Below, in pieces: positions 8,431-35,775 of a stretch of 56,971 bases of DNA. Numbering within the stretch: position 1 is the first letter of the stretch; every line of letters begins with the position of its first letter. The position numbers and the translations under genes are program-made. Below the pieces are notes generated by a model. That model ran no database searches and had not been told where the DNA came from. It worked only from the letters and a program-made list of their open reading frames with translations. The stretch lies in NCBI GenBank assembly GCA_026395215.1, contig JAPLZC010000010.1, positions 206,150 through 263,120 of the forward strand, written 5' to 3'. Origin of the DNA: Candidatus Staskawiczbacteria bacterium (GTDB taxonomy: Bacteria > Patescibacteriota > Minisyncoccia > Minisyncoccales > Staskawiczbacteraceae).

Positions 8431-8524
8431 CACTAATATACTAATTTTATTCTAATCTACAGAAACACTAATCTACAAATTCGCATTTTCGCAGATTAGC
8501 ATAAGATTCGCAGATTAGTATTAT
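8431..8524. repeat. Inverted array CTAATCTAC x2 / GCAGATTAG x2 between infC and rpmI
   Basis: Units at 8452, 8468 and inverted at 8491, 8510; right arm 39/45 identical to 35731-35775. Confidence 0.88.
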
Positions 8525-8530
8525 ATTTAT

Positions 8531-8719
8531 ATGAATAAAACAAAAAAAGCGTTAGTAAAAAGATTTAGAGTGACAAAGAACGGTAAAATTCTGAGAAGAG
8601 CAACCGGTCAGAACCACTATAGATCTAAAAAAACGGGTGAACAAAAGAGAAAAGGTCGCAAATGGATCACCCTTTCAAAAAAAGAAGCTGGTAGAATTAA
8701 AAAGTTTTTAACAAAGTAA
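8531..8719 (+). CDS. rpmI: 50S ribosomal protein L35
   Basis: KTKKALVKRFRVTKNGKI...GQNH; position. Confidence 0.93.
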   Translation: MNKTKKALVKRFRVTKNGKILRRATGQNHYRSKKTGEQKRKGRKWITLSKKEAGRIKKFLTK

Positions 8720-8734
8720 TATAATAGTAAGGTA

Positions 8735-8764
8735 CACCCTTCGCTTTTGTAAAAGCTCAGGGTG
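8735..8764. repeat. CCCTTCG...GCTCAGGG family palindromic element, intergenic
   Basis: CACCCTTCGCTTTTGTAAAAGCTCAGGGTG; shares arms with 21015-21037. Confidence 0.7.
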
Positions 8765-8790
8765 ATTTCCTCGCTTAACTCGAAAATCAC

Positions 8791-9138
8791 ATGTCAAGAG
8801 TAAAAAGAGCAGTACAAGCCAGAAAGCACAGGAAAAACATACTAAAACATGCTAAAGGTTTTTCATACGGAAGAAAAACACATTTTAAGTTGGCCAAAGA
8901 TGCATTAAGACATGCATGGACTTATGCATACAGAGACAGAAAAACAAAAAAGAGATTGTCCAGGAATCTTTGGAATATACAAATAAACGCATTAGCCAGA
9001 CAAAACGGAATTACTTACAGCAGGTTAATTGACGGGCTTAAAAAACACAAGATAGAGTTAGACAGAAAAGTTTTGTCCGTATTAGCAAACGAATATCCAG
9101 AAGTATTCATAAAGGTAGTTGAAGAAGTCAAAAAGTAG
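8791..9138 (+). CDS. rplT: 50S ribosomal protein L20
   Basis: MSRVKR...AKGF...YAYRDRK...LDRKVLS. Confidence 0.97.
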   Translation: MSRVKRAVQARKHRKNILKHAKGFSYGRKTHFKLAKDALRHAWTYAYRDRKTKKRLSRNLWNIQINALARQNGITYSRLIDGLKKHKIELDRKVLSVLANEYPEVFIKVVEEVKK

Positions 9139-9142
9139 ACAT

Positions 9143-9173
9143 AAAAAAACACTCCCCTATTGGGAGTGTTTTT
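9143..9173. terminator. Bidirectional terminator between rplT and NUDIX gene
   Basis: AAAAACACTCCC-CTATT-GGGAGTGTTTTT. Confidence 0.85.
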
Positions 9174-9176
9174 AGT

Positions 9177-9665
9177 TTATTTTATATTCGTAACAAAGTC
9201 ATTCGCCTCTTTCAACAATTTCTTAGAATTTTTGAACGTTGTCCTTTTAATTGCCTCATCAATTGGAAGCCATAAAAATCCTTTGTGCTCGTGGGAAATT
9301 TCTACTGCCTTAGTTTTTGTCTCTGCAACAAAAAAGGTAACTAATTTAAAAATCCACCCGCCTAAAGCTTCAACATTATGGCGGGCAGGCTCCGACTTGC
9401 CCGTCAAATTGCCCAACAGGGCTTTTGTCGGGTATTGCTTAAAAAAGTATTTCGCATATTTTTTGAATCCCGGCAAAATTTTAATATCCTTTATCCCGGT
9501 TTCCTCACCCACCTCCCTCCTTGCGGCGTCTTCCTCACTTTCTTTACCTTCAATATGCCCCTTAGGAAATTCCCAATGCCCAGAAGGGTAATGCAAAAGG
9601 AGGTAATAAGTTTTATCACCATCTTTTCTAAAAATTATAGCTCCCGCTGATTTCTCTCTTGGCAT
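9177..9665 (-). CDS. NUDIX hydrolase (Ap4A hydrolase-like) with repeat-derived insert
   Basis: Nudix box GHIEGKESEEDAARREVGEETGI; SAGAIIF, ISHEH. Confidence 0.9.
   Translation of the reverse strand: MPREKSAGAIIFRKDGDKTYYLLLHYPSGHWEFPKGHIEGKESEEDAARREVGEETGIKDIKILPGFKKYAKYFFKQYPTKALLGNLTGKSEPARHNVEALGGWIFKLVTFFVAETKTKAVEISHEHKGFLWLPIDEAIKRTTFKNSKKLLKEANDFVTNIK
9357..9432. repeat. Two adjacent palindromic elements in frame in NUDIX gene
   Basis: CCCGCC...GGCGGG (9357-9385) and CCCGTCAAATTGCCCAACAGGGCTTTTGTCGGG (9400-9432), the latter the same unit as half of the ileS element. Confidence 0.85.
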
Positions 9666-9670
9666 ATAAA

Positions 9671-11410
9671 CTAATTTTTAATTTTTAATTTGAAATTTTC
9701 AATTAATTCCTGTATCGGCAAAGTATTTATAATGTCGCTCTTCTCTGCCCAACCTCGTCTTGCTTGGCCAACACCATATTCCATTAAATCCATCTGTTCT
9801 TTTTGGTGGCTGTCTGTATTTATTATCATTTTTATTCCCCTTGCCTTTGCTTGTCTTATATTAAAACCATTTAGGTCTAGCCTTCTGGGAGAGGAATTAA
9901 TTTCTAAAATTATTCCTGCTCTTTTGGCAACTTCAAGTATTTTATCAAAATCCATTTGATATTCATCTCTCTGGCCAATTAACCTTCCCGTTGGGTGCGC
10001 AAATATATCAACGTTTGGGTTCTCTAAAGCTTTCACTATTCTTTCTGTCATTTCCTTTCTTTTCATCTTCATTCCAGAATGGATACTAATAATAACATAA
10101 TCTAATTTTTCCAAAAATTCATCTTCAATTGCTAACGAGCCATCTGGCAATATATCTACCTCGCATCCATGTAAAATGCGGAACTTTATACCTTGCTCTT
10201 TAAACTTTAAATTTAGTTTTTGTATTTCTTCGTTTTGTTTTAATAGTTTTTTTCCGTCTAACCCATTTGTGATTCCTATAAATTTTGAGTGATCTGAGAT
10301 GCCAATATATTCGTGGCCCATGTCTATAGCTTTTTGAACCATATCTTCTAAAGAATTATCCCCGTCAGAATCTAAAGTATGTGTATGCAGGTTTCCCTTT
10401 ATATCTTTAAGCTCCACTAGAATCGGCAGTTTACCTTCTATGGCGGCTTGAATTTCTCCGTCATCTTGGCGCATTTCCGGTTCTATGTATGGCAAGCCAA
10501 TGGCTTTATAAACTTCTTGTTCTGTTTTGCCTGCAATATACTTTTTACCTTTAAAAACTCCGTATTCTGAAAGTTTTAGACCTTTCTCAATGGCAATTTT
10601 TCTTGTAGCAATGTTGTGCTCTTTAGAACCTGTAAAATATTGCAAGGCTGAGCCAAAGCTTTCCTTTTTAACCATTCTTAAATCAATATCAAATCCTTCT
10701 TTAAACCTTACAGAACACTTTGTTCCACCATTTGCCCAAATTTTCTCCACTTCAGGCATTTTCACGAAAAAATCTGCGGTCTTTTTTGGTTTATCAGACA
10801 CCACCAAAATATCAATGTCACCAATTGTTTCTTTTTGTCTTCTAACAGAGCCAGCAACGCTAACCTGCTTTATTTCTTTTCTATTTTCCAATCTCTTTAT
10901 AATTTCTTTAACAGTCGACATAATATCCCCTAATAAAAATCTACCCTTGCTCTGCTTCAAAAATTCTAATCCCTGCAATATATTTTTTTCTGTTTTTTCT
11001 CCAAACCCAAAAAGCGGAGCTATTTTATGACTCTTAGCCATTTTAGACAAATCTTTCAAATTTTTAATCCCCAGTTTTTGGTAAAGCACTTTTATCTTTT
11101 TTGGTCCCAACCCCTCAACCTTCAGCAGTTCTTCAACCTTAAACGGCAACTTTTTTTTAAGAGCCTCCAAACTTTTTATTTTTCCAGTTTTTAGATACTC
11201 TTCTATCCCCTTGGCTATACCCTCGCCAACACCAGAAATTTCATAAAGCGCCTTAATACCTCCATTTATATAAATTTCTCCGACATCGTCCTTTAAGCTA
11301 TCTAAAGTCAGCGCTACTTTTCTGTAGGCAAAAGGCTTAAAGCTTACACCATCTATTTCCAGATAGTTTGCCATTTCAAAAAATATTTTTGCTAATTCTT
11401 GATTCTTCAT
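9671..11410 (-). CDS. polX: DNA polymerase X with PHP domain
   Basis: AGSVRR...GDIDIL, YFTGSKEHN, HTH..SDG, AHPTGR, NTDSH; start refined to MKNQELA at 11410. Confidence 0.95.
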   Translation of the reverse strand: MKNQELAKIFFEMANYLEIDGVSFKPFAYRKVALTLDSLKDDVGEIYINGGIKALYEISGVGEGIAKGIEEYLKTGKIKSLEALKKKLPFKVEELLKVEGLGPKKIKVLYQKLGIKNLKDLSKMAKSHKIAPLFGFGEKTEKNILQGLEFLKQSKGRFLLGDIMSTVKEIIKRLENRKEIKQVSVAGSVRRQKETIGDIDILVVSDKPKKTADFFVKMPEVEKIWANGGTKCSVRFKEGFDIDLRMVKKESFGSALQYFTGSKEHNIATRKIAIEKGLKLSEYGVFKGKKYIAGKTEQEVYKAIGLPYIEPEMRQDDGEIQAAIEGKLPILVELKDIKGNLHTHTLDSDGDNSLEDMVQKAIDMGHEYIGISDHSKFIGITNGLDGKKLLKQNEEIQKLNLKFKEQGIKFRILHGCEVDILPDGSLAIEDEFLEKLDYVIISIHSGMKMKRKEMTERIVKALENPNVDIFAHPTGRLIGQRDEYQMDFDKILEVAKRAGIILEINSSPRRLDLNGFNIRQAKARGIKMIINTDSHQKEQMDLMEYGVGQARRGWAEKSDIINTLPIQELIENFKLKIKN

Positions 11411-11414
11411 TTTT

Positions 11415-12059
11415 TTATGGCTCCACCACCGGTTTCCCTCCAGAAAATGGAATAATATGACCATCTCTTGAAAAAATGTGCTTTCTAACAAGTAGCAACA
11501 AAATTGTTGAAATAATTGTTAGCGCGCTTACAGAAATGAAAAGTACTTTGAATCCTACAAGTGCCACCACTATTCCACTTAACCCACCCGCTATACCGGC
11601 TCCCATACCCACAGATGTGCTTTCTAGTCCCCATTCAAAAGCTTCTTTGCCTTTATCTATGTGGCGGGTGAATATGGCAAGCCAGGAAGGCAGTACCATT
11701 GCCATACCAGCCGCATATATTACCTGCAAAAGATAAATGTGCCATGGCGCAGAAGAAAAAAGATATCCAATTGGTATAAACGCTGCTATAAACATTCCGC
11801 ACACCATAAACCAAAAATCATCTTTCTCTCCATGCTTTTTGTCCAGAAAAATTGCTATTGGGATTTGGAAAAAAGATTTTGGTATCCAATAAAAAAGCGC
11901 GGCCAGTCCAGCAATTCCTGCGGCTTGTGCTGGGCTATTTTTTGCGATATTACCCAAAATAAATATAGCAAATATGGGAGACAACAAGCCCCACCCCAAA
12001 TTTAAAAAAAGATCGCTTACAACCAATGTCTTAATAACCCTATTTATTAATTTTGCCAT
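11415..12059 (-). CDS. MFS-like membrane protein, half size (about 6 TM)
   Basis: 214 aa, hydrophobic helices, LDKKHG loop resembling MFS motif A. Confidence 0.75.
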   Translation of the reverse strand: MAKLINRVIKTLVVSDLFLNLGWGLLSPIFAIFILGNIAKNSPAQAAGIAGLAALFYWIPKSFFQIPIAIFLDKKHGEKDDFWFMVCGMFIAAFIPIGYLFSSAPWHIYLLQVIYAAGMAMVLPSWLAIFTRHIDKGKEAFEWGLESTSVGMGAGIAGGLSGIVVALVGFKVLFISVSALTIISTILLLLVRKHIFSRDGHIIPFSGGKPVVEP

Positions 12060-12140
12060 TTTGTTACGTTTATTTATTATTTTAATATTTTACCACAAAT
12101 AAAAACAAAAAGCCCCCAGAAGGGGCATTTTGTTGTTTTG

Positions 12141-12617
12141 CTAGCTAATCTCGTATTTTATATTCTTTATTTTATATCTCATTTCAACGGGGGAAGGAAC
12201 AATCACCTCATCTCCTATTTTATGACCCATTAAGGCTCTTCCAACAGGTGATTCATTACTAATTTTTCCTAATGCCGGATTTGCTTCCAACGTCCCTACA
12301 ACAACAAATTCATCTTTTTGTCCGCCAACGTCCACTCTAACCTTCGCCCCAACTGCCACAACTCCCTGCTTATCTTTTGCCGGATTTTTTATCAATTCAT
12401 GGTGGTCCAAAACATTTCTCAGTTCGTCAATTCGCGACCTCAAAAAGTCTATATCTTCCTGAAAGCTGACAAACTCCGGATTTAAATCTTCTGACTCTAA
12501 AACTTTTGGCGCCTCCTGACCTAAAGATTTTTTTTGCTCAAAATCAACCAACTCTGCATATTCTTTTTTAAGCTCCTGAAATTTTTCTTTGGTTATGTAA
12601 AAAAGTTTGTCTTCCAT
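12141..12617 (-). CDS. greA: Transcription elongation factor GreA/GreB family
   Basis: YITKEKFQELKKE, EANPALGKISNESPVGRALMG; acidic tip divergent (EDLNPEF). Confidence 0.85.
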   Translation of the reverse strand: MEDKLFYITKEKFQELKKEYAELVDFEQKKSLGQEAPKVLESEDLNPEFVSFQEDIDFLRSRIDELRNVLDHHELIKNPAKDKQGVVAVGAKVRVDVGGQKDEFVVVGTLEANPALGKISNESPVGRALMGHKIGDEVIVPSPVEMRYKIKNIKYEIS

Positions 12618-12670
12618 GTTATGGCTTTTTAATGATATTCCAGCAATCAAGTAATGTCAATACTTTTTTT

Positions 12671-13888
12671 TCACAGCAAGATTTTTATTTTCCCGTAGAC
12701 CCCGTCGTATCCTGGCTTAATAGAGACTTTTCCTTGGCGCATTTTTATAACTCCCGTAGCAATCTCCGGTAAAGACCATTTTTTAATTTCTTCTTCCGTT
12801 GACTCCAATAATATTTCTAATTCGTTCCCTAAATTTTTTATTAGGTTATTATAATACTTTGGGACTTCTTTAGACAAGACAGAAACGCCAATTGATTCAG
12901 CAATTACTTCGTTTAGTGGAATCAAACTCTTAAATGGAATTGCATTTTTAGGCACAAAACCTTCCGGCCTATCGGCTAATTCTTCAACTCTGTTCAAAAC
13001 ACCTATAACTAATTTCTTTTTACACTTAGGACAAATATTTTTATTTTTTTTAGATTGCCTAGGAGAATAACTTATGCCACATAGTCTATGACCATCATAA
13101 TGGTATTTCCCCTCTTCCGGGAAAAATTCAATGGTATATAAGAATTTTTTAGAACGCACTTTCGGAGTTTTTGATTTTAGCGCGTCAGCAATCCCTTTAT
13201 AGCTAAGCTCTGTGGTAAAGACATTTGCCTCTCTGCCAATTTTGGCAAGAGAATGGGCATCACTATTAGAGATTAAATTAATTTTATCTAATTGAGAAAG
13301 CCTCCAATTCATTTTTGGATCAGAACATAAACCTGTTTCTATTGCATAAATATATTTTGTGTATTCTTCAAAACATTCTTCTAAAGAATTAAAACCTGAC
13401 TTTGACCCAAAAACAGAAAACCACGGCGTCCAAGCGTGAGCCGGCACCACCAAACAATCTTTATCTACCTCTAAAACAATTTTAACCAACTCCTTTGCGT
13501 CTAATCCCAAAATTGGCCGTCCATCAGAATGCAAATTTCCTATTTTACTTAATTTTTCGTTTATTTTTTCAACCGTATTTATAGATGGAGCGAAAATAAT
13601 TATGTGAATTTTCCTGACTTTGCCGTTTTTTTTATAAATACAGCTGATTTCTGAAGTTAGAATAAATCGAGTCCCAAAATTTGATTTTTTTAGTGAAAAA
13701 AGCCCCGATTCTGCGGGGTTTAGTTCTTTTTTTATACTCTTTAACCATTTAGGGTGTGTAAAATCTCCTGTTCCCAAAACTTTAATCCCTTTAATTTCCG
13801 CCCATTTAGCCAAATTAGCCAGATTCATTTGTGGAGATACAGCCCTAGAATATTTAGAATGTATGTGAAAATCTGCTATAAAATTCAT
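12671..13888 (-). CDS. Endonuclease Q family / PHP-domain protein
   Basis: ADFHIHSKYSRA, GTGDFTHP, PAHAWTPW, SNSDAHS, GKYHYDGHRLC, CPKC, PGYDGVYG. Confidence 0.88.
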   Translation of the reverse strand: MNFIADFHIHSKYSRAVSPQMNLANLAKWAEIKGIKVLGTGDFTHPKWLKSIKKELNPAESGLFSLKKSNFGTRFILTSEISCIYKKNGKVRKIHIIIFAPSINTVEKINEKLSKIGNLHSDGRPILGLDAKELVKIVLEVDKDCLVVPAHAWTPWFSVFGSKSGFNSLEECFEEYTKYIYAIETGLCSDPKMNWRLSQLDKINLISNSDAHSLAKIGREANVFTTELSYKGIADALKSKTPKVRSKKFLYTIEFFPEEGKYHYDGHRLCGISYSPRQSKKNKNICPKCKKKLVIGVLNRVEELADRPEGFVPKNAIPFKSLIPLNEVIAESIGVSVLSKEVPKYYNNLIKNLGNELEILLESTEEEIKKWSLPEIATGVIKMRQGKVSIKPGYDGVYGKIKILL

Positions 13889-14865
13889 ATTTTATCTAAA
13901 ATTATTCCTCCCTGATAATTTAATTTATATATTTTTTTATCTTGTACAGTAATTTCTTCTACACCGGAAAAGTCGTCAATGCTTCCCTTACCTTGGTCAG
14001 AATATTTATATTCTCTTTTTTCATATTCACAAGATTTTCCAAGCCGACATTTTTCAGCTAACCTAAACAATGATTCCCTTAAAAAACCAGCTTCCAATCT
14101 TCCAATTTGATCTCCCATATAATTCATACCCCAAATTGGTCTTAACTCCTGATAAATAATTTCTTGCCCGATAAACTTTTTATTCCCATTAAAAAAAATG
14201 TCGCGATAAAAATAATCTCCTTTTTGGAATTCTAATTGTTTAGAAGCTAAAAGACGTGGGTTGTCTAACGAGTTAGCATTAGCAGCAAAAGTACTTTTGC
14301 GGGCTTCACACAGAAAATTTACCAAGCTCTCCAAGTTTATATTGCTTTTATCTGTATAATCAATTTCCTTAAAAGTGAATTTACCTCCGCTTTCAAGCGC
14401 GCTCATCATTAATTTACCCAATTCTTTTGTTTCTACTATATATTTTGAATATTTATCTTTCTTTTTAATATCCAATGGAGCCTGAAATCTCAATAACTTT
14501 TTGCCTTCCTGAGACTCTACAACCTCCGCAATATCCCTAAACTGTAATGATGGCACTAACCAAATATAATCATTAATTTTTTGTAAAACCTCATCAAAGT
14601 AAACAAAAAGCAAATAAAAGTTTTTTTCCGCTTTGAAACTTTCCTGCAAAAAATCCTTTACAAAAATGCCTTTCTTCATGGGCTTAAAAGTGCTACCAAT
14701 AAGGAAATACATTTCTTTCTCTTTGTATTCCCCTCTTCTTTCCACAGCCAAATAGTCTTCTAGCCCCTTCTTCTCCGGCTTAAAAACAACCAGCCTGCCT
14801 CCGGTGCTTAAAGCAATTACATCAATAATTTTATCTTCAATTTCCTCTTGTATATTCTCAACCAT
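13885..14865 (-). CDS. Hypothetical protein with C-terminal DUF5680-like domain
   Basis: FLCEARKSTFA...YFYRDIFF...FIGQEII...WGMNYMG...F.G.EEI...Y.GG pattern. Confidence 0.6.
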   Translation of the reverse strand: MVENIQEEIEDKIIDVIALSTGGRLVVFKPEKKGLEDYLAVERRGEYKEKEMYFLIGSTFKPMKKGIFVKDFLQESFKAEKNFYLLFVYFDEVLQKINDYIWLVPSLQFRDIAEVVESQEGKKLLRFQAPLDIKKKDKYSKYIVETKELGKLMMSALESGGKFTFKEIDYTDKSNINLESLVNFLCEARKSTFAANANSLDNPRLLASKQLEFQKGDYFYRDIFFNGNKKFIGQEIIYQELRPIWGMNYMGDQIGRLEAGFLRESLFRLAEKCRLGKSCEYEKREYKYSDQGKGSIDDFSGVEEITVQDKKIYKLNYQGGIILDKI

Positions 14866-14866
14866 T

Positions 14867-15205
14867 TTAAATTTTATACACTTTATATCCCTCGTGAACT
14901 TTTTCTTCTATTTTCATACCAACGTCATCTCCTTTTTTAGCTACTTTAACCTCTTTGTGGTCAATTTGCATAGATTTAACCTTTTGCTCAAAATCTGTTT
15001 CTTGGCCACCAATTATTCTAATATCATCTCCAATCTTCAAAGGTGATAAAAGATTAATAACCACCACCTCTATATTAGAAAAATAATGGGTTATTCTCCC
15101 TATTAATTTTCCTTCTATTGCGGCTTTTACCGGGCTTGCTTTTTTTACAACTTTTTTGACTACCTTTTTTGCTACTTTTTTAACTGTTTTTTTCTTTGTT
15201 GCCAT
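14867..15205 (-). CDS. Small translation-factor-like beta-barrel protein with Lys-rich N-terminus
   Basis: IGRITHYFSNIEV...LKIGDDIRIIG...FEQKVKSMQIDH...GDDVGMK. Confidence 0.75.
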   Translation of the reverse strand: MATKKKTVKKVAKKVVKKVVKKASPVKAAIEGKLIGRITHYFSNIEVVVINLLSPLKIGDDIRIIGGQETDFEQKVKSMQIDHKEVKVAKKGDDVGMKIEEKVHEGYKVYKI

Positions 15206-15213
15206 GTTTCTTG

Positions 15214-15242
15214 CCCGCCTAATTGCTTTAGCTTTTGGCGGG
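15214..15242. repeat. 29-nt palindromic element just upstream of a start codon
   Basis: Reverse complement CCCGCCAAAAGCTAAAGCAATTAGGCGGG resembles 37231-37259. Confidence 0.8.
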
Positions 15243-15279
15243 TTATATTAATTATATATAACTCTTACCTTACTCTAAC

Positions 15280-15308
15280 AAAAAAACCATTGCTTTTCAA
15301 CAATAGTT
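15280..15308 (-). terminator. Intrinsic terminator of candidate 6S-like RNA
   Basis: AACTATTGTT-GAAA-AGCAATGGTT followed by T-run. Confidence 0.7.
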
Positions 15309-15315
15309 CCTTTAA

Positions 15316-15450
15316 GGGGGAGAGTGAATATTTTGCAACGAAATTGGTTTTTCTCGAGTCTAACTTCGGACAACGAAGCTAAATATATATTTTTCCTACT
15401 TCGATACAAGCTATTTTTGTCCTTAGGGATAAACCCCGTACCCTCCCCAT
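15316..15450 (-). ncRNA. Candidate 6S-like RNA
   Basis: Own promoter and terminator; no plausible ORF; ends pair (GGGGAGGGT/ACTCTCCCC) and the rest folds by eye into a rod with central bubble. Confidence 0.55.
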
Positions 15451-15457
15451 AACTGTA

Positions 15458-15521
15458 ATTCTATCTTTTAATACCCAAATGTCAATTGCTTGTTGACAAA
15501 TTTATATTTTAAAAATAGAAT
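15458..15521. promoter_or_regulatory. Back-to-back sigma70 promoters
   Basis: Minus: TTGACA (15480-15485)-16-TAGAAT (15458-15463). Plus: TTGACA (15493-15498)-17-TAGAAT (15516-15521). Confidence 0.85.
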
Positions 15522-15527
15522 TAAATC

Positions 15528-16957: not shown

Positions 16958-18166
16958 TTATCTATTTTTTAATGCGTCTCGGGCGATTTGGCGATCGTCC
17001 CACGGAATTTTTTTGCCGTTTTCCAAACACATCCAGGGCTCTGACCCCTTTCCAGTAATTACAACAACCTCCCCAGGTTGCGCAAGTTTTATTGCAGTAT
17101 TTATTGCTTCTTTTCTATCTAATATTATTTGGGCTTTAGGACCAGCTGTTTTAGCAACCTCATTTATAATTTCCATTGGCTCTTCATCATACGGATCTTC
17201 ATTGGTGATTATAATTTCTTTACAATATTTTCCTGCCAGTTCTCCCAACACCGGCCTTTTCCATTTATCTCTCCCGCCCCCGCAAGACCCCAAAACACAA
17301 ACCATATTTTCATCCTTAAAAGTTTTATAAACGGCTTCAAGTTGTTCTGGGGTGTGCGCATAATCTACAACAACCTTTATGGGAGTTTCGGCCACAATTT
17401 CCATTCTACCTGGAATACCGGGATACCCTTTGGGTCTTTTTTCCAGTGCCCTTTTGCTTACTGTGTCGTCAATCCCATAAGCTCTGGCAACAGAAATTGC
17501 AGCCATTGCGTTCATTAAGTTAAACTCTCCCTCCATATTTAATTTAATTCCAGCGTCTTTGGCATCTTCCATACAAAATTCTACTATTTTGTTTGCGGGA
17601 ATATCCAAAAAGTATTTTGCATTTTGGTCATCTGCGTTTATAACGTGTATATTTTTTGTCACTTTAAAAAGTTTGAGTTTTTCGTTTCTATAATTTTCAA
17701 AACCTCCATGGCTTTCAATGTGCTCGGGAGTTAGGTTTGTAAAAACAGCGCAATCAAAATTTATAAACTTGTGCCTAAATTGTCTAATTCCCTCTGATGT
17801 CACTTCTAAAACAACATATTTACAACCTGCCCTTCTCGCCTGTGCTAAAAATTTCTGAATCACAAAACGCCCGGGCATTGTCATCTTATACTTGTTCTCC
17901 CACTCTTTATTGGCAACTTTAAATCTTATTGAAGAAAGCGAAGCAACTTTTTCTCCTTTCTCTTCTAAAATTCTTGTAATAAAATCTGTAGTTGTTGATT
18001 TCCCGCTGGTTCCCGTAACCCCAATTATTTTCATGTTTTTGTTATGGAAAACCCTGCCTGCCGGCAGGCAGGCAAAAAACACAGCCCCAATTAAAGCCCA
18101 ACAAAAATGATAGCCTCTCAACAGAAATTTCGGTATAAATTTTTTAATTATTTCTTTAAAAGTCAT
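16958..18166 (-). CDS. murE: UDP-N-acetylmuramoyl-tripeptide synthetase (MurE-like)
   Basis: GVTGTSGKSTT, LEVTS, FTNLTPEH, GRME, VDYAHTP, GGGRD, EDPYDE, GKG.E. Confidence 0.9.
   Translation of the reverse strand: MTFKEIIKKFIPKFLLRGYHFCWALIGAVFFACLPAGRVFHNKNMKIIGVTGTSGKSTTTDFITRILEEKGEKVASLSSIRFKVANKEWENKYKMTMPGRFVIQKFLAQARRAGCKYVVLEVTSEGIRQFRHKFINFDCAVFTNLTPEHIESHGGFENYRNEKLKLFKVTKNIHVINADDQNAKYFLDIPANKIVEFCMEDAKDAGIKLNMEGEFNLMNAMAAISVARAYGIDDTVSKRALEKRPKGYPGIPGRMEIVAETPIKVVVDYAHTPEQLEAVYKTFKDENMVCVLGSCGGGRDKWKRPVLGELAGKYCKEIIITNEDPYDEEPMEIINEVAKTAGPKAQIILDRKEAINTAIKLAQPGEVVVITGKGSEPWMCLENGKKIPWDDRQIARDALKNR
18053..18072. repeat. Perfect 20-nt palindrome in frame in murE
   Basis: CCTGCCTGCCGGCAGGCAGG; encodes ACLPAGR. 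Confidence 0.95.
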
Positions 18167-28587: not shown

Positions 28588-28671
28588 TCCTTATCTTATC
28601 ACATTTTTCACCCAAAAAAAATAACCCCGCTTTACGAGAATATTTTTTTGTTTACAGCACTTAATGCCTAT

Positions 28672-28953
28672 TTAACAACTACCAGAAATCTTAGGGATAT
28701 ATATTATCAATAACAAAAAAATAACAGAAAATATCAAAAATATATATTTACTAAACCTTAATGGTCTTTCAACTTTTAAAAACAGACTCATGCAATTTAA
28801 TATGAAAAACGCAAAACCTGAAAGTGCCCAAATTATCACCGCAAAATCCATATTGACGACATGCGTGGAACAAAAATCCAAAGAAAACAAAACAACTATT
28901 ACTACCGAGACAATTAAAATTAGTAAATTATAAATAAAAGTTTTCTTGTTCAT
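28672..28953 (-). CDS. Small membrane protein (3 TM)
   Basis: 93 aa hydrophobic ORF. Confidence 0.6.
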   Translation of the reverse strand: MNKKTFIYNLLILIVSVVIVVLFSLDFCSTHVVNMDFAVIIWALSGFAFFILNCMSLFLKVERPLRFSKYIFLIFSVIFLLLIIYIPKISGSC

Positions 28954-28976
28954 TATTATAATTATATTTTACTCTT

Positions 28977-29432
28977 CTAAAAATCCCTGTCAAATTTAAT
29001 TTTGCGAGTTTTGTCGTCAATAAATTTAAAATCTATTTTGATGATATTTTTGGGGAGAACTTTTTTAATACGTTCGGGCCATTCTATTGCAATAATATTT
29101 CTGGCGTCTTTTAAAATATCTTTTAATCCCAATTCAGCAGCATCTTTTTCATCTTTTAGCCGGTAACAATCAATGTGATAAAAATCTTTGAATCTAAAGC
29201 CCGGCACTTCAAATCTTTTCTGTATAACAAAAGTTGGGCTTAATATTTTATCTTTTATGCCAAGACCTTTTGCAAATCCCTGCAAAAAAGTTGTCTTGCC
29301 TCCCCCTAAATTTCCGAACAAAGCCAAAACAACTGCTCCTTTTTGAGGCACGGTTGCCAAAATCTCTTCGGCTAAATTTTCGCCAAGCTTTTGGGTTTGT
29401 TTTGCGCTGGTTGTGATGTATTTTTTATCCAC
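28977..29432 (-). CDS. tsaE: tRNA t6A biosynthesis ATPase
   Basis: GNLGGGKTT, SPTF, HIDCYRL, IEWPE. Confidence 0.95.
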   Translation of the reverse strand: MDKKYITTSAKQTQKLGENLAEEILATVPQKGAVVLALFGNLGGGKTTFLQGFAKGLGIKDKILSPTFVIQKRFEVPGFRFKDFYHIDCYRLKDEKDAAELGLKDILKDARNIIAIEWPERIKKVLPKNIIKIDFKFIDDKTRKIKFDRDF

Positions 29433-29479
29433 AGATTTTGTTTGACTTATTTTTTGAATTCGTTTAGGGTATTATAATC

Positions 29480-29499
29480 CCCGCCTGCTAGCGGGCAGG
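29480..29499. repeat. LPAGRQ-family palindrome, intergenic
   Basis: CCCGCCTGCTAGCGGGCAGG, 9 nt upstream of ATG 29509. Confidence 0.8.
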
Positions 29500-29508
29500 T
29501 ATAAAAAT

Positions 29509-30270
29509 ATGGAAAACCAAGAAACAAAAAATTTAATAGACAATTCTAAAAATATTTATTTGATTACTTCGCAGGAGCCAGAGGCAATAACCTCTACACT
29601 GGCTCTTTTTTATACTTTAAAAGATTTAGGCAAAAATGTAAACCTTATTATTGAATCTCTGCCTGAAAATTTAAAATTTTTATCTCCATCTTTAGATTTT
29701 ATTTCTTATCCTAAAAACTTTGTAGTTTCTATCCCAACCAAAGTAGCTCAAATATCGCAAATTCATTACGAAAAAAAAGACGAAGCTTTTAAAATACATT
29801 TAACCTTAGAGGGCGGATCTATAAAAAAAGATAATATTTCATTTTATTTTCAGGAAGCTAAGCCAGACCTAATAATAACAGTTGGCGTAGAAGACTACCA
29901 AAAAGAATTATCGGAAAAGTTAAATTATTTTGGCTTTTTACTGGATTCTCCAGTTGTGGATATCGACAACAAGCAAAATAACAAAAAATTTGGTAAAATA
30001 AACTTAATAGGAGAAGGTTCGATGTCGGAGGTTATTTATAACCTAATAAAACCCGACAAAAGCCCCGAAGGGCATTTAGACGGGCCCGTCACAATCCCCG
30101 CAATGCGGGGTTTGGTCGGGGAGACTGCCCAATGCCTTTTGACGGGCCTAGTTATATACACTGAAAATTTTAAAAATAAACTTTCTGCTGATGTTTTCCA
30201 ACTTGCTTCAGATTTAATGAAAAAAGGGGCCAGCTTAGAAGAAATAGTAAAAAATATTTACAGTAAATAA
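29509..30270 (+). CDS. Degenerate DHH-family (NrnA-like) protein
   Basis: DHH-like layout (ALFYTLKDLGKNV, PDLIITVG, AQCLLTGL) but DIDNK where DHH is expected. Confidence 0.65.
   Translation: MENQETKNLIDNSKNIYLITSQEPEAITSTLALFYTLKDLGKNVNLIIESLPENLKFLSPSLDFISYPKNFVVSIPTKVAQISQIHYEKKDEAFKIHLTLEGGSIKKDNISFYFQEAKPDLIITVGVEDYQKELSEKLNYFGFLLDSPVVDIDNKQNNKKFGKINLIGEGSMSEVIYNLIKPDKSPEGHLDGPVTIPAMRGLVGETAQCLLTGLVIYTENFKNKLSADVFQLASDLMKKGASLEEIVKNIYSK
30052..30120. repeat. 69-nt composite palindromic element in frame
   Basis: Encodes PDKSPEGHLDGPVTIPAMRGLVG; paralog of the ileS insert. Confidence 0.9.
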
Positions 30271-30274
30271 TTAT

Positions 30275-31609
30275 ATGGAAGAAACAAAAAAATTATTGGG
30301 GTCGGTGACAATTTCTCCAAAAATTATTGAAGAAGTCAAAACTCAAGTAAAAGACATTGAGGCTTTTAAGAATAAAATTAAAGAGTATTCAACGCAAAAT
30401 GTCACAGAGCTTTTGGATGTTATTTTGTATGGAGCCATAACGCTTAATACTTCCGATGTTCACATTGAACCACAAGAAGAAGAGGCGCGACTTAGAATTA
30501 GGTTGGACGGTATTTTGCAGGATGTTGTTTTCTTTCAACATGATGCTTACCACCATTTGCTTAGCCGTTTAAAACTTCTTTCAAAACTAAAACTTAATAT
30601 TGCAGACAAGCCGCAGGATGGTAGGTTTACAATAATGGTTGCTGATTTACTGATTGAAGTAAGAACTTCCAGCTTGCCGGCAGAATATGGCGAGTCAATT
30701 GTGATGAGAATACTAAATCCAAAAAGTTTAATTTCTTTGGAAGATTTAGGTTTAAGGGAGGACTTATACAAAACTTTTCAAAAAGAAATTACAAAACCAA
30801 ACGGAATGATAATTGTTACCGGTCCGACCGGGTCTGGTAAAACAACTACTCTTTACGCCTTCTTAAAAAAAATACAAAACCCGGAGATTAAAATTATAAC
30901 AATTGAAGACCCAATTGAATATCACCTAACAGGAGTTTCGCAAACGCAGGTTGCCCCGGAAAAAGGATATGACTTTTCCGATGGCTTACGGTCAATTGTA
31001 AGACAAGACCCAGATGTTATTTTGGTTGGTGAAATTAGAGACTTAGAAACCGCAAAAATAGCCCTTCAGGCGTCTTTGACTGGCCACTTGGTACTATCAA
31101 CCTTGCACACCAATGACGCGGCTGGAACCATCCCGCGACTTGTGGACCTTGGTGTAGAGCCCTCATCGGTAGCATCAGGATTGAAAATGGCAGTAGCACA
31201 GCGATTATTGAGAAAAGTGTGTAAAGAGTGTTCAACCCTTGCCAAGCCCTCTACAAGTGAATTAGCAGAGCTAAAAAAAGGACTTAAAGATTTGCCAAAA
31301 AATATAAAAATACCTGATTTGGATAAAGTAAAAGTTGCCAAGATAAAAGAGGGCGGCTGCCAAGCCTGCAATTTTACAGGATATAGAGGCAGACAGGGAC
31401 TATTTGAAGCATTTTTAGTTGATTCGGGAATGGAAAAGTTTATTTTAACCAATCCCCCAGTTTCAGATATTAGAGAGCTGGCCATAAAAAAAGGAATGGT
31501 AACAATGTACCAGTCCGGTCTGATAGACATAGCTGAAGGCAAAACCACTTTTGACGAAGTCGCCCGCGTAGTCGAAGCCGACGAGGAACAGCAGGTTGAA
31601 AAAATATAA
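30275..31609 (+). CDS. pilB: Type IV pilus assembly ATPase (PilB/GspE family)
   Basis: SDVHIEP, PQDGR, GPTGSGKTTT, TIEDPIEY, RQDPDVILVGEIRD, STLHTN, two CxxC. Confidence 0.9.
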   Translation: MEETKKLLGSVTISPKIIEEVKTQVKDIEAFKNKIKEYSTQNVTELLDVILYGAITLNTSDVHIEPQEEEARLRIRLDGILQDVVFFQHDAYHHLLSRLKLLSKLKLNIADKPQDGRFTIMVADLLIEVRTSSLPAEYGESIVMRILNPKSLISLEDLGLREDLYKTFQKEITKPNGMIIVTGPTGSGKTTTLYAFLKKIQNPEIKIITIEDPIEYHLTGVSQTQVAPEKGYDFSDGLRSIVRQDPDVILVGEIRDLETAKIALQASLTGHLVLSTLHTNDAAGTIPRLVDLGVEPSSVASGLKMAVAQRLLRKVCKECSTLAKPSTSELAELKKGLKDLPKNIKIPDLDKVKVAKIKEGGCQACNFTGYRGRQGLFEAFLVDSGMEKFILTNPPVSDIRELAIKKGMVTMYQSGLIDIAEGKTTFDEVARVVEADEEQQVEKI

Positions 31610-31668
31610 AAAAACAGCCCCGTCCACTGAAAAGTTACTAAGGGCAAGAAAATGAAAGGTTTAAATGG

Positions 31669-32046
31669 CTAGGATTTCCTAAATACCAGTATCTCGATAA
31701 TGAGAGTAAGGTATCCTAAACCCATAAGTCTCAAAGACAACACGGCAGAATCATGAATGACCATCGGATCCGATTGTATCCCTGACTCTACAACGTAGAA
31801 CAATAGCGTCCAGGCGGTTGCACATCCTACCGCTATGATGATTTCGGGGATATTGCTCCATATGGTAGAGATTACATACGCCATGCTATGACCGAATTCT
31901 GTAAGTGTATTTTTCATCAGCCATTCCTTCCACTTTGAGTTGTCAATAAGCTTTTGAAACGACCCTAGAATTGGAGGTACTTTTATGTCTGGGACATAAA
32001 GAAAGATTTTTCCGAGGAATAATCGAGCCGGAGCAAGATTATCCAA
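31669..32046 (-). CDS. Orphan membrane protein, start uncertain
   Basis: 125 aa ORF; promoter TTGACA-17-TATACT (32115-32143) and SD GGAGGT upstream, but the SD-proximal TTG is in another frame. Confidence 0.5.
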   Translation of the reverse strand: MDNLAPARLFLGKIFLYVPDIKVPPILGSFQKLIDNSKWKEWLMKNTLTEFGHSMAYVISTIWSNIPEIIIAVGCATAWTLLFYVVESGIQSDPMVIHDSAVLSLRLMGLGYLTLIIEILVFRKS

Positions 32047-32136
32047 AGCTGAGAAAAATCCAAATAAATACCTCCAATTCTAGGGTCGTTTATGGTATAA
32101 TTCAAATATCCTTGAGTATATCACTATTTAATCTAT

Positions 32137-33150
32137 ATGTCAACCCCTGTACCTGAAAAACCGCAAAAAGAAGACGACGTGTTAGACTCGACCTTACGGC
32201 CGGGTTCTTGGGCTGATTACGTTGGACAAGACAAAATTAAAGAGAATATCCGTATAATTATAACTGCCGCCAAACAAAGGGGCCATTCCCCTGACCATTT
32301 ATTGTTCTATGGCAACTCAGGATTGGGTAAAACCACTCTAGCGCTTTTAATTGCCAAGGAAATGGGTAAAACAATCCGCTCAACTTCTGGTCCCGCTTTA
32401 GAAAGAGCCGGCGACCTAGCTGCTATTTTAACAAACCTACAAGAGGGTGATGTTTTGTTTCTAGATGAAATCCACAGAATTAATAAAACCATAGAAGAAT
32501 ACCTATATCCGGCTATGGAGGACTACAAATTAAATTTGGTTTTGGGAAAAGGCCCAATGGCGCGCACCATGGAATTAAAATTGCCTAAATTTACTTTGAT
32601 TGGAGCCACTACAAGACCAGGTTTATTGTCTGCTCCCCTACGTAATAGATTTGGAGCAACCTTCCAACTTAATTTTTACAATTTAGAAGATGTTAAAAAA
32701 ATAATTGAACGCTCGGGCAGACTTTTAAAAATAAAAATGGCGCCTGAGGCTGTGGAAGCAATTGCCAAGCGATCAAGATATACTCCAAGAGTAGCAAATA
32801 GACTAGTAAAAAGAGTCAGAGACTTTGCCCAAGTTCAGGGAGTGGAAATTATTACAAAAGAAATTGCCGAAAAATCTTTAGATTCTTTGGAGGTAGATTT
32901 AATGGGTTTAGACCCAAGTGATAGAAATATATTAAAAGCCTTAATAGAAAAATTTAGCGGGGGCCCGGTTGGTCTACAATCTCTAGCCGCCGCCGCTATG
33001 GAAGAAGAAGAAACTATCTTAGATATATATGAACCCTATCTTATGCAATGTGGTCTCCTAGAACGTACTCCCAAGGGCCGAGTTGCCACTAACCTAGCCT
33101 ACGAACACCTAGACCTAAAACACCTAAAAAAACAAAGTAATCTGTTCTAA
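32137..33150 (+). CDS. ruvB: Holliday junction branch migration helicase RuvB
   Basis: LRP, GLGKTTLA, DEIHR, GATTR, TPRVANRL, GGPVG, RTPKGR. Confidence 0.98.
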   Translation: MSTPVPEKPQKEDDVLDSTLRPGSWADYVGQDKIKENIRIIITAAKQRGHSPDHLLFYGNSGLGKTTLALLIAKEMGKTIRSTSGPALERAGDLAAILTNLQEGDVLFLDEIHRINKTIEEYLYPAMEDYKLNLVLGKGPMARTMELKLPKFTLIGATTRPGLLSAPLRNRFGATFQLNFYNLEDVKKIIERSGRLLKIKMAPEAVEAIAKRSRYTPRVANRLVKRVRDFAQVQGVEIITKEIAEKSLDSLEVDLMGLDPSDRNILKALIEKFSGGPVGLQSLAAAAMEEEETILDIYEPYLMQCGLLERTPKGRVATNLAYEHLDLKHLKKQSNLF

Positions 33151-33187
33151 ACAAAAATCGCTCCACTGAGCGATTTTTAAGTCCTGT

Positions 33188-33418
33188 TTATGCGGCGGCG
33201 GAAGATTCCTGGTCTTTCCTTCTTTGCAATTCGTTTTCTGCGGCTTTGACAAACCTTTCCTGCCAAGGCGTCATTGGGGCTTCATTATTTGTTGGAGAAT
33301 ATGAAGTGTTTTTCATATTATCAATATTCCTCTGCAAAAAATCCGATGGAACTTCTCCAAAATTAAACTCCTTTTGCAATTCCTCTTCTTGTGATGACCT
33401 TTCTTTTTGTTCTGCCAT
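33188..33418 (-). CDS. Hypothetical protein
   Basis: 76 aa ORF ending at bidirectional terminator 33153-33178. Confidence 0.6.
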   Translation of the reverse strand: MAEQKERSSQEEELQKEFNFGEVPSDFLQRNIDNMKNTSYSPTNNEAPMTPWQERFVKAAENELQRRKDQESSAAA

Positions 33419-33435
33419 AATTTTTATATTTTTAC

Positions 33436-33801
33436 TTATATTAATTTATTCACATTGAGTTCTTCCAGAATTTTTGCTACTTTTTCTTTTAAGACTGGAA
33501 TTTCTACTTTTGCTGTCTTCCACAATCTATGACAATCAATTCCAAAATACACATGCATAAAAATATTTCTCATTTTAACCGATTTTTTCCAATTTACTTC
33601 TTTATGCCCTTTCTTCAATCCGGCTGGTAGATTTTTAACCGCCTCACCAACAATTCCAATTCGCATTATAACCGCATCTTTAATTTGTTCATTTTTTGTA
33701 AAATCGTTTTCAGTTATATTTTTTGTATACTTATCAATCTTTTCCGCACACTCAATAATGTCTTGTAAAAACATCGCAAAATTTCTATTTTCATTTTTCA
33801 T
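33436..33801 (-). CDS. HEPN (DUF86/HepT-like) RNase toxin
   Basis: DAVIMRIGIVGEAVK, RNIFMHVY (Rx4H-Y); overlaps MNT stop. Confidence 0.9.
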   Translation of the reverse strand: MKNENRNFAMFLQDIIECAEKIDKYTKNITENDFTKNEQIKDAVIMRIGIVGEAVKNLPAGLKKGHKEVNWKKSVKMRNIFMHVYFGIDCHRLWKTAKVEIPVLKEKVAKILEELNVNKLI

Positions 33802-34082
33802 AAAATAAAAACCTGCTCGTTTAATATTCTATCCTTAATTTGAGGACGGATATTTGAATATTCTCCCAAGTCAACTTTTTTCTTCAACTTTTCTTCCAGC
33901 TCAATTTGTAATTCAGCTAAATCAAACAAACTTTTATCATCATTCCTATACTCTATCAAAATATCCACATCACTCTTCTTTTTTTGCTCTCCTCTAGCAT
34001 AAGAACCAAAAATCGACGCCCTTTTAACATCGTGGCGTTTTAAGATCGGCTTTATTTTATTTTTTATATCTTTAATGCTCAT
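33798..34082 (-). CDS. Minimal nucleotidyltransferase (MntA-like) antitoxin
   Basis: FGSYARG...SDVDIL...KKVDL. Confidence 0.9.
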   Translation of the reverse strand: MSIKDIKNKIKPILKRHDVKRASIFGSYARGEQKKKSDVDILIEYRNDDKSLFDLAELQIELEEKLKKKVDLGEYSNIRPQIKDRILNEQVFIL

Positions 34083-34162
34083 ACCTCGTTTATATCACAA
34101 ACCGCCAATTTATCAAAACAAAAAAATGCACAGCGGATTAATCGCTGTGCTTCGAGCCTTGT

Positions 34163-34624
34163 CTAAGGCAGGTCGAACTTTGGAGGGAAAGCCGGCGTTC
34201 CGATTTTCATCTCAACAACCGCGCGTTGGCCTCTGGTAAGCTCCCTAAAAATCTGGCCATCGTAATCGTTTACGATTATTTTCAGAGCTACCAGCATTCC
34301 GTAAAGTTCCAAGATACCCATCCCGCATTTGTCCTTTCCTCTCTGGCGCGATTCAATGTGATAGTAATAGCGGGCAAGATGGACACACAAAAACTGATCA
34401 TTATCCATTTTTTTGTTGGGTTTTTTACCAGGTTTTTTAATCGAAGGAGCTTTGCTGATTTTTTTCAAGGCATCCTTGAGAATCTTTTTTGTGGAATTGA
34501 AAATAATCATTCTAACCTTGGCTGGTTCGTCGGTGCTTCGTATGCTTAAGATGAGAAGAGCGTTGACGGCTACCTCAACCTCTTTAAGAACTTTCTGCCA
34601 AAAAGCAACCTTTTTCGCTTTCAT
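34163..34624 (-). CDS. Orphan basic protein (start 34624 or 34633)
   Basis: About 153 aa ORF with own promoter, leader hairpin and terminator 34120-34150. Confidence 0.65.
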   Translation of the reverse strand: MKAKKVAFWQKVLKEVEVAVNALLILSIRSTDEPAKVRMIIFNSTKKILKDALKKISKAPSIKKPGKKPNKKMDNDQFLCVHLARYYYHIESRQRGKDKCGMGILELYGMLVALKIIVNDYDGQIFRELTRGQRAVVEMKIGTPAFPPKFDLP

Positions 34625-34759
34625 GTTTCCCATCCTTCTTGTGATGGCTCTTTTGAGCCGTTGTTAACGAACACTGATTCAATTTTATATTATCACTAAT
34701 TATATTTTTATCAACATAAATTACTTACAGATAATCTTTTTTTGTTGTATAATATTTAA

Positions 34760-35695
34760 ATGAATAAAAATTTACTGATTATTTTAATTTCTACGTGCTT
34801 TTTTGCGGACGGGGTTTTTGCAGCAGACAGAGTAGATATTAATACAGCTTCTTTGCAACAATTAGACACTCTAACTGGAATTGGACCGGTATATGCGCAA
34901 CGTATAATAGATGGCAGGCCGTATTCTTCAATAAATGATCTAGATAATGTAAAAGGAATTGGACCGGCAACTTTGCAAAAAATAAAAGACCAAGGATTAG
35001 CCTGTGTAAATTGTTCGACGTCCGACGTCGAACAAACTCAGCCGACTCCCCCTGTGCCAACGCCCACTCCAACACCTAACACCCAAAATCCAACACCTAT
35101 AACCTACCCATCGGGCATATATATAAACGAAATTTTGCCAAATCCGACGGGGGCGGATGAAACAGACGAATATGTAGAAATTTACAACTCAAATAGTACC
35201 GATGTGGATTTGTCTGGGTGGCAGTTACAAGACAGAGCCGGTACAATAACAACCTACACAATCCCAAGCATCACCAAAATTATGGCCAACGGATTTTTAG
35301 TCCTCAAAAGACCAGAGACAAAAATAATGTTGAATAATGAACAGGATGGTTTAAACTTGCTAACACCAGATAAAAAGACCGTGGACTCTGTTAATTTTAC
35401 TTCGTCTCCTTTAGGACAATCTTATGGTAAAACATCCTCCGGATGGAGTTGGAGCACAACTCTAACACCTGGGACTATGAATATTATTACGGCTATTACA
35501 AAAGCAGTATTGCCAAAAGCAGATAATTCTGTTAAAAATAACAGTGTTACCCCGCTTGCAGCGGGTTTGAGCCAAAGCATAGATATCAACCAGACAAATC
35601 CTTGGTTTTTATTTTTTACGGTTTTGGGGGTAACGATAATTTTAGCTATATTAGTATTATTAATTAAATTAAGGTTTTTTAAAACACAACACTAA
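34760..35695 (+). CDS. ComEA-like HhH protein fused to lamin-tail domain, C-terminal TM
   Basis: VDINTAS..LDTLTGIGP..AQRII; INEILPNP...EYVEIYN...VDLSGWQL; signal peptide and C-terminal helix. Confidence 0.85.
   Translation: MNKNLLIILISTCFFADGVFAADRVDINTASLQQLDTLTGIGPVYAQRIIDGRPYSSINDLDNVKGIGPATLQKIKDQGLACVNCSTSDVEQTQPTPPVPTPTPTPNTQNPTPITYPSGIYINEILPNPTGADETDEYVEIYNSNSTDVDLSGWQLQDRAGTITTYTIPSITKIMANGFLVLKRPETKIMLNNEQDGLNLLTPDKKTVDSVNFTSSPLGQSYGKTSSGWSWSTTLTPGTMNIITAITKAVLPKADNSVKNNSVTPLAAGLSQSIDINQTNPWFLFFTVLGVTIILAILVLLIKLRFFKTQH
35011..35035. repeat. 25-nt palindrome in frame in ComEA-like gene
   Basis: TTGTTCGACGTC-C-GACGTCGAACAA; encodes CSTSDVEQ. Confidence 0.75.
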
Positions 35696-35775
35696 TCTAC
35701 GGAAAATATTCTAATCTACGGAAACACGAATTCGTATTTTTGTAGATTAGTATAAGATTTGTAGATTAGTATTAT
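35692..35775. repeat. Inverted array CTAATCTAC x2 / GTAGATTAG x2 between comEA-like gene and yebC
   Basis: Units at 35692, 35711; central palindrome ACGAATTCGT 35726-35735; inverted units at 35742, 35761. Confidence 0.9.

Follow-up and report, generated by a model that had tools for sequence, protein, structure and literature searches.

Two gene-less inverted-repeat arrays in operon junctions of a Candidatus Staskawiczbacteria genome, probable partners of a GxxExxY nuclease gene

The window analysed here, a stretch of 56,971 nucleotides from contig JAPLZC010000010.1 of a Candidatus Staskawiczbacteria bacterium, carries two arrays of short inverted units that enclose no gene: array 1 at 8431..8524 (+) in the infC-rpmI junction, and array 2 at 35692..35775 (+) in the junction of a comEA-like gene and yebC. 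Both are of one repeat family, F3, whose units also bracket a gene of the GxxExxY family (TIGR04256/PF13366, PDDEXK_3), which has a PD-(D/E)XK nuclease fold. We believe that nuclease and repeat probably form a partnership built like that of RAYT (REP-associated tyrosine transposase) and REPIN (REP doublet forming hairpins; REP, repetitive extragenic palindrome), only with a PD-(D/E)XK enzyme, and that the two arrays are gene-less members of F3. From comparison with relatives, both are insertions into tight stop-to-start operon junctions in this lineage. Below, G000 is the window's own genome (771,534 bases in 15 contigs, about 91% covered by open reading frames, ORFs), the other G-numbers are further genomes, C-numbers are contigs of G000, and L-numbers are loci in the surveyed genomes.

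Array 1 follows the infC stop codon (8428-8430) with a degenerate left unit, CTAATATAC, at 8433 and two left units, CTAATCTAC, at 8452 and 8468; its centre, at about 8476-8484, includes the degenerate AAATTCG, and the right units, GCAGATTAG, stand at 8491 and 8510, ahead of a terminal TATTAT (8519-8524) and, after 6 nt, the rpmI ATG at 8531. The left units of array 2, CTAATCTAC at 35692 and 35711, begin within the upstream gene, with the comEA-like stop codon (35693-35695) inside the first of them; the centre, ACGAATTCGT, occupies 35727-35736, the right units, GTAGATTAG, stand at 35742 and 35761, and TATTAT (35770-35775) precedes the yebC ATG at 35782. The first-pass annotation had described exactly this, two units facing two GYAGATTAG units around a centre and running from the upstream stop to 6 nt before the next ATG, and both the arrays and their coordinates agree with it at the two junctions. 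Its further claim, that the 45-nt right arms (8480-8524 and 35731-35775) differ at six positions, every one C/T, gave the same count when both arms were re-read. The motif TAGATTAG is found seven times in the window versus 1.96 ± 1.36 expected, a count reached in 0/100 shuffles. Predicted folding energies are -15.7 kcal/mol (sense) and -29.6 kcal/mol (antisense) for array 1, and -33.9 and -35.6 kcal/mol for array 2 (z of -7.6 and -10.0).

Clustering of units gives ten gene-less F3 copies in G000 (nine full, one right half) and one gene-bearing locus, while a strict rule, which demands clusters of at least four units in both orientations, leaves eight gene-less copies with 0 in the reversed-unit control. 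The unit pair GYAGATTAG-N6-14-GYAGATTAG was sought in G000 and 40 other genomes, with the reversed pattern as control: it has 22 matches in G000 (control 0) and is present in three of the 40, two of them congeners (G014 and G022) and one from a different family (G025). Eighteen F3 copies, drawn from G000, G014 and G022, align to one consensus of about 90 nt, in the order two to three CTAATCTAC units, centre ACGAATTCGY, two GYAGATTAG units, TATTAT, and an ATG 4-9 nt farther on. The F3 copies of G000 fill stop-to-ATG gaps between co-directional genes with few nucleotides to spare on either side, and polarity relative to the downstream gene is the same in 17/18 copies, the exception being C12:56669. 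The element has a direction, since the spacers of its two arms are not complementary. None of its 9-nt units forms a stem by itself, and the units of all the families described below are 6-9 nt.

The spacing of the units is regular, 16 or 19 nt, as operator or promoter arrays of a regulon would have it if the units were transcription-factor sites. TTAGCA-17-TATTAT at 8496-8524 moreover scores 9/12 in a promoter scan, and TAWWAT precedes 22% of starts, at -18..-3, versus 4.8% of the background. The idea is nonetheless barely credible: conservation extends from the units to the spacers in copies from unrelated junctions and from three species, the genes downstream are functionally unrelated, and the promoter scan performs at chance level (2 found versus 0.8 ± 1.1), array 2 not being called. 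As to the starts of G000 in general, crude gene calls place Shine-Dalgarno-like motifs before 9% of 542 ATG codons versus 8.4% of the background; the enrichment of TAWWAT without such motifs hints at many leaderless or short-leader mRNAs.

The arrays are tied to GxxExxY by the gene at C15:93036-93410, 113 kb outside the window. CTAATCTRC/GYAGATTAG units bracket this gene and its orthologs in G014 and G022, bearing out the link that had been drawn between arrays and gene family. The G000 copy has a full F3 array before it and three right units after it, and the G014 ortholog (L037) has left F3 units, gene and right F3 units in simple order. Within the genus, F3 is limited to G000, G014 and G022, the three genomes with the F3-flanked gene. 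The arrangement extends to other unit types: a profile survey of 26 genus genomes found 16 GxxExxY loci in eight of them (G000 and seven others), and by inspection all 16 occupy a stop-to-ATG junction, with short tandem units arrayed in inverted orientation on either side of the gene and the type of unit differing among the loci. G000 holds four TIGR04256 loci, two of them in the window, each above 35 bits and past the curated cut-off, with genome-wide E-values of 1.6e-31 to 8.2e-23 and 1.2e-16 for a broken copy in the window; the bracketed genes match TIGR04256 and PF13366, not PF01797. In a scan of G000 for genes with inverted-repeat flanks, the C15:93036 gene alone stood out (score 58), the other GxxExxY genes staying near background; short-unit arms suit its scoring poorly.

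For each of the four G000 genes there are gene-less arrays of the cognate type, numbering 14, 10, about 10 and 1, in keeping with the REP/RAYT analogy that the first reading of the window had offered. By the strict rule, family F1 (ACGGAT/ACAGAT) has 14 gene-less members, F2 (ACGAAT) 10 and F3 8, with reversed-unit controls of 0 throughout. F1 units match the flanks of the window gene at 56080-56544, F2 units those of the gene at C7:13467-13808, and F3 units those of C15:93036-93410; the fourth gene, of D type, has one gene-less counterpart, C15:31957-32030, in which both flanks are kept. The expansions are lineage-specific, the F1 core occurring at 11 sites in G000, one in G022 and none in 24 other genus genomes; for the F2 end the counts are nine in G000 and two in each of G010 and G015.

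The two filled loci of the window, which had been grouped with the arrays, do contain GxxExxY genes, but their flanking units are of other families than those of the two arrays. The D-type cassette (5538..5993, -) lies between an amino-acid-kinase gene and argS. Its ORF, 5577-5969(-), is interrupted in frame by TAA at 5862-5864, a codon that reads Q in the intact ortholog of G022; contigs of a second study contain this broken allele in identical form. Its flanks comprise CTAATCTAC at 5983-5991, ATCCGAAT at 5968-5975 and three ATTCGGAT units at 5544-5572, next to the argS ATG at 5537. G022 has an intact cassette ortholog in the same junction (L039), while in most relatives the kinase and argS genes overlap as ATGA, the ancestral state, the cassette being present in G000 with a broken gene and in G022 with an intact one. 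The F1 cassette (56029..56563, -) has an intact ORF at 56080-56544, and the ATG of the next gene is at 56028. Its left arm (ACGGAT/ACAGAT, about 56500-56563) partly encodes the N-terminus of the ORF, and its right arm of ATCCGT/ATCTGT units (56029-56079) is 43/48 identical to the right half of a gene-less F1 array, C4:21366-21452.

Orthologous junctions in the genus are mostly narrow. We compared 24 infC-rpmI loci from 23 genomes (23 loci from 22 genomes besides G000): the spacer is at most 19 nt in 17/24, mostly 1-8 nt, and an F3 array is present in G000 alone. Six other loci carry palindromic inserts of 79-139 nt unrelated to F3 (L049, L050, L057, L063, L060 and L065, in G014, G023, G022, G010, G015 and G021, respectively); those of G022 and G010 have terminal inverted repeats in common. 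Because 7/24 loci carry palindromic inserts of 79-139 nt, infC-rpmI looks like an insertion hot spot. At comEA-yebC, G000 is again alone with an F3 array among 24 genus genomes, itself included, and G007 has an unrelated 67-nt insert; absence was read here from the printed sequences and the lists of unit-pair matches, as overlapping stops make calling of the upstream ORF unreliable. Since most relatives have only a few nucleotides at these junctions, it is the array itself that was inserted.

The reverse comparison agrees in sense: eight F3 arrays of G014 and G022 have a G000 ortholog downstream, and an F3 unit is found at the G000 site in 0/8, one of these sites holding an array of another family. 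Sister species differ in the junctions occupied. The gene at C9:16338-16547 (about 69 aa) has an F3 array upstream of its orthologs in G014 (L002) and G022 (L024); upstream of the G000 copy is just a ATAATATACTAATATA-like stretch, possibly left over from the left end of such an array. Assembled contigs from the source run and from two runs of another study were also compared. In the latter two, contigs of related organisms join across 8418-8531 and across 5534/5538-6006, and an identical strain in that study retains array 1 and the 5538-5993 cassette. An RNA-library contig spans 5544-5694, which may be DNA carry-over.

The first-pass annotation had gone further and proposed that a GxxExxY gene comes and goes at the two sites, which would serve as its landing pads. 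When the infC-rpmI and comEA-yebC regions of relatives were examined for such a gene between the arms, none was filled: no GxxExxY gene was found at infC-rpmI in the 23 other loci from 22 genus genomes, nor at comEA-yebC in the 23 other genus genomes. The proposal is not sustained, as no relative has either the gene or an F3 array at either junction and the array is itself the insertion.

Taken as a mechanism, the same reading would make the arrays homing sites: after nuclease cleavage at the palindromic centre, the arms would serve as homology for copying the gene from a filled site, and sites would alternate between the empty and the filled state. The ORF of filled copies occupies the position of the centre or loop of gene-less copies, and the F3 and F2 centre, ACGAATTCGT, is a perfect palindrome and thus a plausible site for a dimeric restriction-type nuclease. 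The junction upstream of a 690-aa gene (the C15:93036 site), compared in 14 close orthologs and a partial one, is the sole junction with both filled and gene-less states: the cassette is present in three genomes (G000, G014, G022), G007 retains a gene-less half array, a remnant of 52 nt that includes one right unit, the remnant in G005 is 17 nt long, and the other spacers are 11-36 nt. Cassettes of other phyla, in 23/67 cases, lie in-frame within conserved genes, as homing elements do. Weighed against all this, homing is unlikely: across the genus the gene is missing from both junctions, infC-rpmI and comEA-yebC, and in most genomes so is any array; array 1 has a degenerate centre; and one filled copy stands against 8-14 gene-less ones in each family, a ratio that fits non-autonomous copies better than unfilled targets.

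A gene within its own palindrome, some ten copies without an ORF, lineage-specific expansions and differing junctions together make up the pattern of RAYT and REP doublets, and we therefore take the arrays to be non-autonomous copies. Under this proposed partnership, a single-copy gene for the nuclease would reside in the loop of a palindrome whose repeated units, on either arm, its product would recognise, and about a dozen ORF-less copies would have been moved or copied in trans by their cognate nuclease. The terminal TATTAT, 4-9 nt before the ATG, could act as a -10-like signal that keeps the nearly leaderless downstream gene expressed. Binding, cutting and mobilisation of the arrays by the nuclease are what we infer from this arrangement.

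Were the arrays instead hairpins acting at the RNA level only (in processing, stability or coupling), sharing units with the GxxExxY flanks by common repeat descent, one would expect much of what is seen: strong predicted folds (z -3.0 to -10.0), the near-fixed polarity relative to transcription, invariable placement in transcribed stop-to-start junctions, and a host without a Shine-Dalgarno signal. We consider this decidedly unlikely. Orthologous junctions of other genus genomes have no array, which does not befit a conserved regulator, and the sense strand folds worse than the antisense in 13/18 F3 copies (mean -27.2 versus -31.6 kcal/mol), because CTAATCTAC faces GCAGATTAG and the pairing gives A.C mismatches in sense and G.U pairs in antisense. 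Better folding of the antisense strand speaks against a simple hairpin function in the mRNA and leaves room for a hairpin of template-strand DNA, or for double-stranded recognition with a degenerate position. Nor do the arrays match an Rfam family, the best matches being sub-threshold chance microRNA hairpins: in a scan of positions 5300-9300 transfer-messenger RNA (tmRNA) alone passes, and the array reaches 22-25 bits versus microRNA cut-offs of 49-89.

The partnership has its closest parallel in RAYT, which PMC2817692 describes as a single gene flanked by its own inverted repeats, with many gene-less doublets elsewhere. As there, a small nuclease-type gene lies between its own inverted repeats (16/16 genus loci; 51/77 in a wider scan, see below), intergenic gene-less copies are many (F1 14, F2 10, F3 8-10, and likewise in 2/3 outside genomes), and gene and repeat vary together. 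The differences are clear as well. The enzyme is PD-(D/E)XK (PF13366/TIGR04256) here and an HUH Y1 transposase (PF01797) in RAYT; the arms are stemless tandem units of 6-9 nt here and hairpins (imperfect palindromes) of 20-40 nt in REPs; the elements here sit exactly stop-to-ATG with fixed polarity; and REPs have a GT(A/G)G or CGTC head, where here only the F3 right units begin with GTAG or GCAG.

Three genes of the RAYT type do coexist with the arrays in G000, and ordinary REPs moved by these IS200-like (RAYT-type) Y1 transposases would be another explanation. The genes (Y1_Tnp, PF01797, E 3e-7 to 1e-12) are IS200-like, 242-243 aa long, and located at C5:31844-32575, C15:135971-136702 and C13:46980-47708. 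The GTAG or GCAG starts of the F3 right-arm units can be compared with published REP heads, as in the GT(A/G)G head reported by Nunvar et al. (PMC2817692) and the GTAG-tagged REPs of 20-40 nt, some also inside replication and repair genes, reported by Di Nocera et al. (PMC3733652). We hold this explanation to be very improbable, because each of the three transposase genes is flanked by its own, different, inverted GC-rich hairpin, F3 units flank a GxxExxY gene and not Y1_Tnp, and 9-nt units without a stem are unlike REPs of 20-40 nt. Taken by itself, the setting of the three transposase genes is the classical RAYT/REP arrangement.

Miniature inverted-repeat transposable elements (MITEs), such as the Correia elements of Neisseria, are short non-coding palindromes that are polymorphic in presence and absence and may carry expression signals at their ends. 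The arrays resemble them in being short, non-coding and palindromic, in their intergenic presence/absence polymorphism, in the possible expression signal at the end, and in sharing ends with a gene-bearing element of the same genome (43/48 for F1, C15:93036-93410 for F3, C15:31957-32030 for the D type); they differ in that no partner of a transposase family was found, the presumed partner being a nuclease, and that no target-site duplication is clear at the two junctions compared. With free-standing homing endonuclease genes and inteins the system shares small nuclease genes at exact positions between or inside conserved genes and patchy presence among close relatives, but it has no splicing domain, arrays of tandem units surround its gene, and there are about ten gene-less copies for each filled one. 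Like integron attC cassettes, it combines a promoterless small ORF with an imperfect palindrome; the difference is that its ORF lies within the palindrome and not next to it, and that its copies are scattered one by one over operon junctions in place of a stack beside an integrase (for which no search was made). Rickettsia palindromic elements are palindromic repeats tolerated in-frame inside protein genes, and GxxExxY cassettes of other phyla recall these and intragenic REPs in being in-frame within genes, with the difference that the insert is a whole nuclease domain; the two arrays of the window are intergenic.

Outside the genus, we scanned a single genome of each species and obtained 80 loci, from Patescibacteria, Omnitrophota, Planctomycetota, Chloroflexota, Proteobacteria, Bacteroidia and others, 77 of them with enough flank for testing. 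Scoring 170 nt on each side of the gene for inverted repeats, with a threshold of 28, placed 51/77 at or above it, compared with 3/77 for the direct orientation and 0/75 for flanks displaced by 450 nt. A 6-mer repeated upstream, with its complement repeated downstream, was found at 39/77 loci versus 3/77 in the control. Gene-less copies, too, recur: the genome of L201 has 35 unit-pair matches at about 11 sites, one of them filled (control 0), and in a Chloroflexota genome a 17-mer of the flank matches 49 times (control 0).

The in-frame cassettes of these other phyla lie, arms included, in an open frame with at least 100 codons on both sides inside a host gene (23/67 wider loci, all among L147-L226; for example L149, L154, L158 and L163). 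About 15 are in a RecG-like helicase, between DEQHRFG and a TATPIPRT-type motif, and other hosts, named by eye from their motifs, look like valyl-tRNA synthetase, LepA and GatB.

In the protein itself, G25, E30, D68, K80, Y96 and F110 are invariant in 49 GxxExxY sequences and cover the E...D...(D/E)xK core, and the predicted structure (mean predicted local distance difference test score, pLDDT, of 90.5) has a restriction-endonuclease-like fold. Aligned with VIA-align, the model matches BpuSI (Z 8.1), 3ijm (Z 7.9) and Hjc (Z 6.5), which as generic restriction-endonuclease-like matches with Z of at most 8.1 single out no resolvase or other subtype. A Foldseek search with the model returned no match at E ≤ 0.001, and a PDB sequence search gave only a weak match to phage endonuclease I (E 0.027) and no close solved relative. 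PF13366 is listed as ‘Unknown’ in a 2012 superfamily survey (PMC3424549). A text search of the literature, which did not cover supplements and subscription journals, returned no description of unit arrays beside GxxExxY genes.

Several observations weigh against the proposed partnership. The gene could home into pre-existing arrays, which would turn the direction of the link around. No contig of the source run has a joint that skips an array, and no target-site duplication is clear by eye at infC-rpmI or kinase-argS. Gene and repeat do not always travel together: G025 has F3 half arrays, yet its only full GxxExxY gene has ACGAAT-type flanks; G015 has two F2 ends and no GxxExxY match at E ≤ 0.001; and G022 has one F1 core and no F1-flanked gene. 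Because kin are not independent, the co-occurrence within the genus counts few events. Farther afield, 26/77 wider loci fall under the flank threshold, and an alphaproteobacterium, one of three outside genomes tested, has two matches and no expansion. Finally, none of the models considered accounts for the better folding of the antisense strand.

A broader reading, which is quite possible and which we advance with reserve, is that GxxExxY proteins are the mobilising nucleases of a previously unrecognised class of ultra-small selfish elements, each a nuclease ORF looped out of a palindrome of short tandem units, that spawn REPIN-like arrays at operon junctions and also insert in-frame at conserved motifs of essential genes, as in RecG-like helicases, in the fashion of an intein without splicing. 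The two arrays of the window would then be such offspring, and their better antisense folding may indicate that the form recognised is a single-stranded DNA hairpin of the template strand.

Among the neighbours of the arrays, Pfam identifies IF3, L35, L20, an HHH_3+LTD comEA-like protein and YebC, and a tmRNA gene (RF00023, 116.6 bits) lies at 7549-7902 (+), just 5' of infC. Other repeats are present. The PaaX_M (Cas2-like domain) genes C11:49986-50558 and C12:16190-16750 are flanked by inverted palindromes of 30-50 nt, and may represent a further pairing of gene and repeat; there is a third PaaX_M gene at C11:34135-34710, the flanks of the first two having been scanned. A 20-nt GC-rich perfect palindrome, CCTGCCTGCCGGCAGGCAGG, occurs in the window at 5363-5391, 6230-6258, 18053-18081 and 29480-29508, three copies being apparently inside ORFs (argS, the kinase and a 402-aa ORF), and G041 carries it in a junction that is occupied by GxxExxY in G000. 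A GACGGGCCCGTC-type repeat family, with a core of at most 74 nt, 89% identity and both orientations, is represented at 231-304 and 30049-30122, with further copies at 9394-9436, 15208-15244 and 37229-37265. A 31-nt inverted repeat, 90% complementary and with 73 nt between its arms, lies at 31957-31987 and 32061-32091.

If the partnership holds, the widespread GxxExxY family, which lacks a known function, would gain a role, and a second symbiosis of gene and repeat, mechanistically unlike RAYT/REPIN, would be recognised. With about 35 arrays in a 771-kb genome, selfish repeats that look active are seen to occur even in streamlined genomes of the candidate phyla radiation, at positions where the harm is smallest. 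The arrays also matter for annotation, because their arms are often translated as false N-termini, and for strain typing, and they flag junctions that are insertion hot spots.

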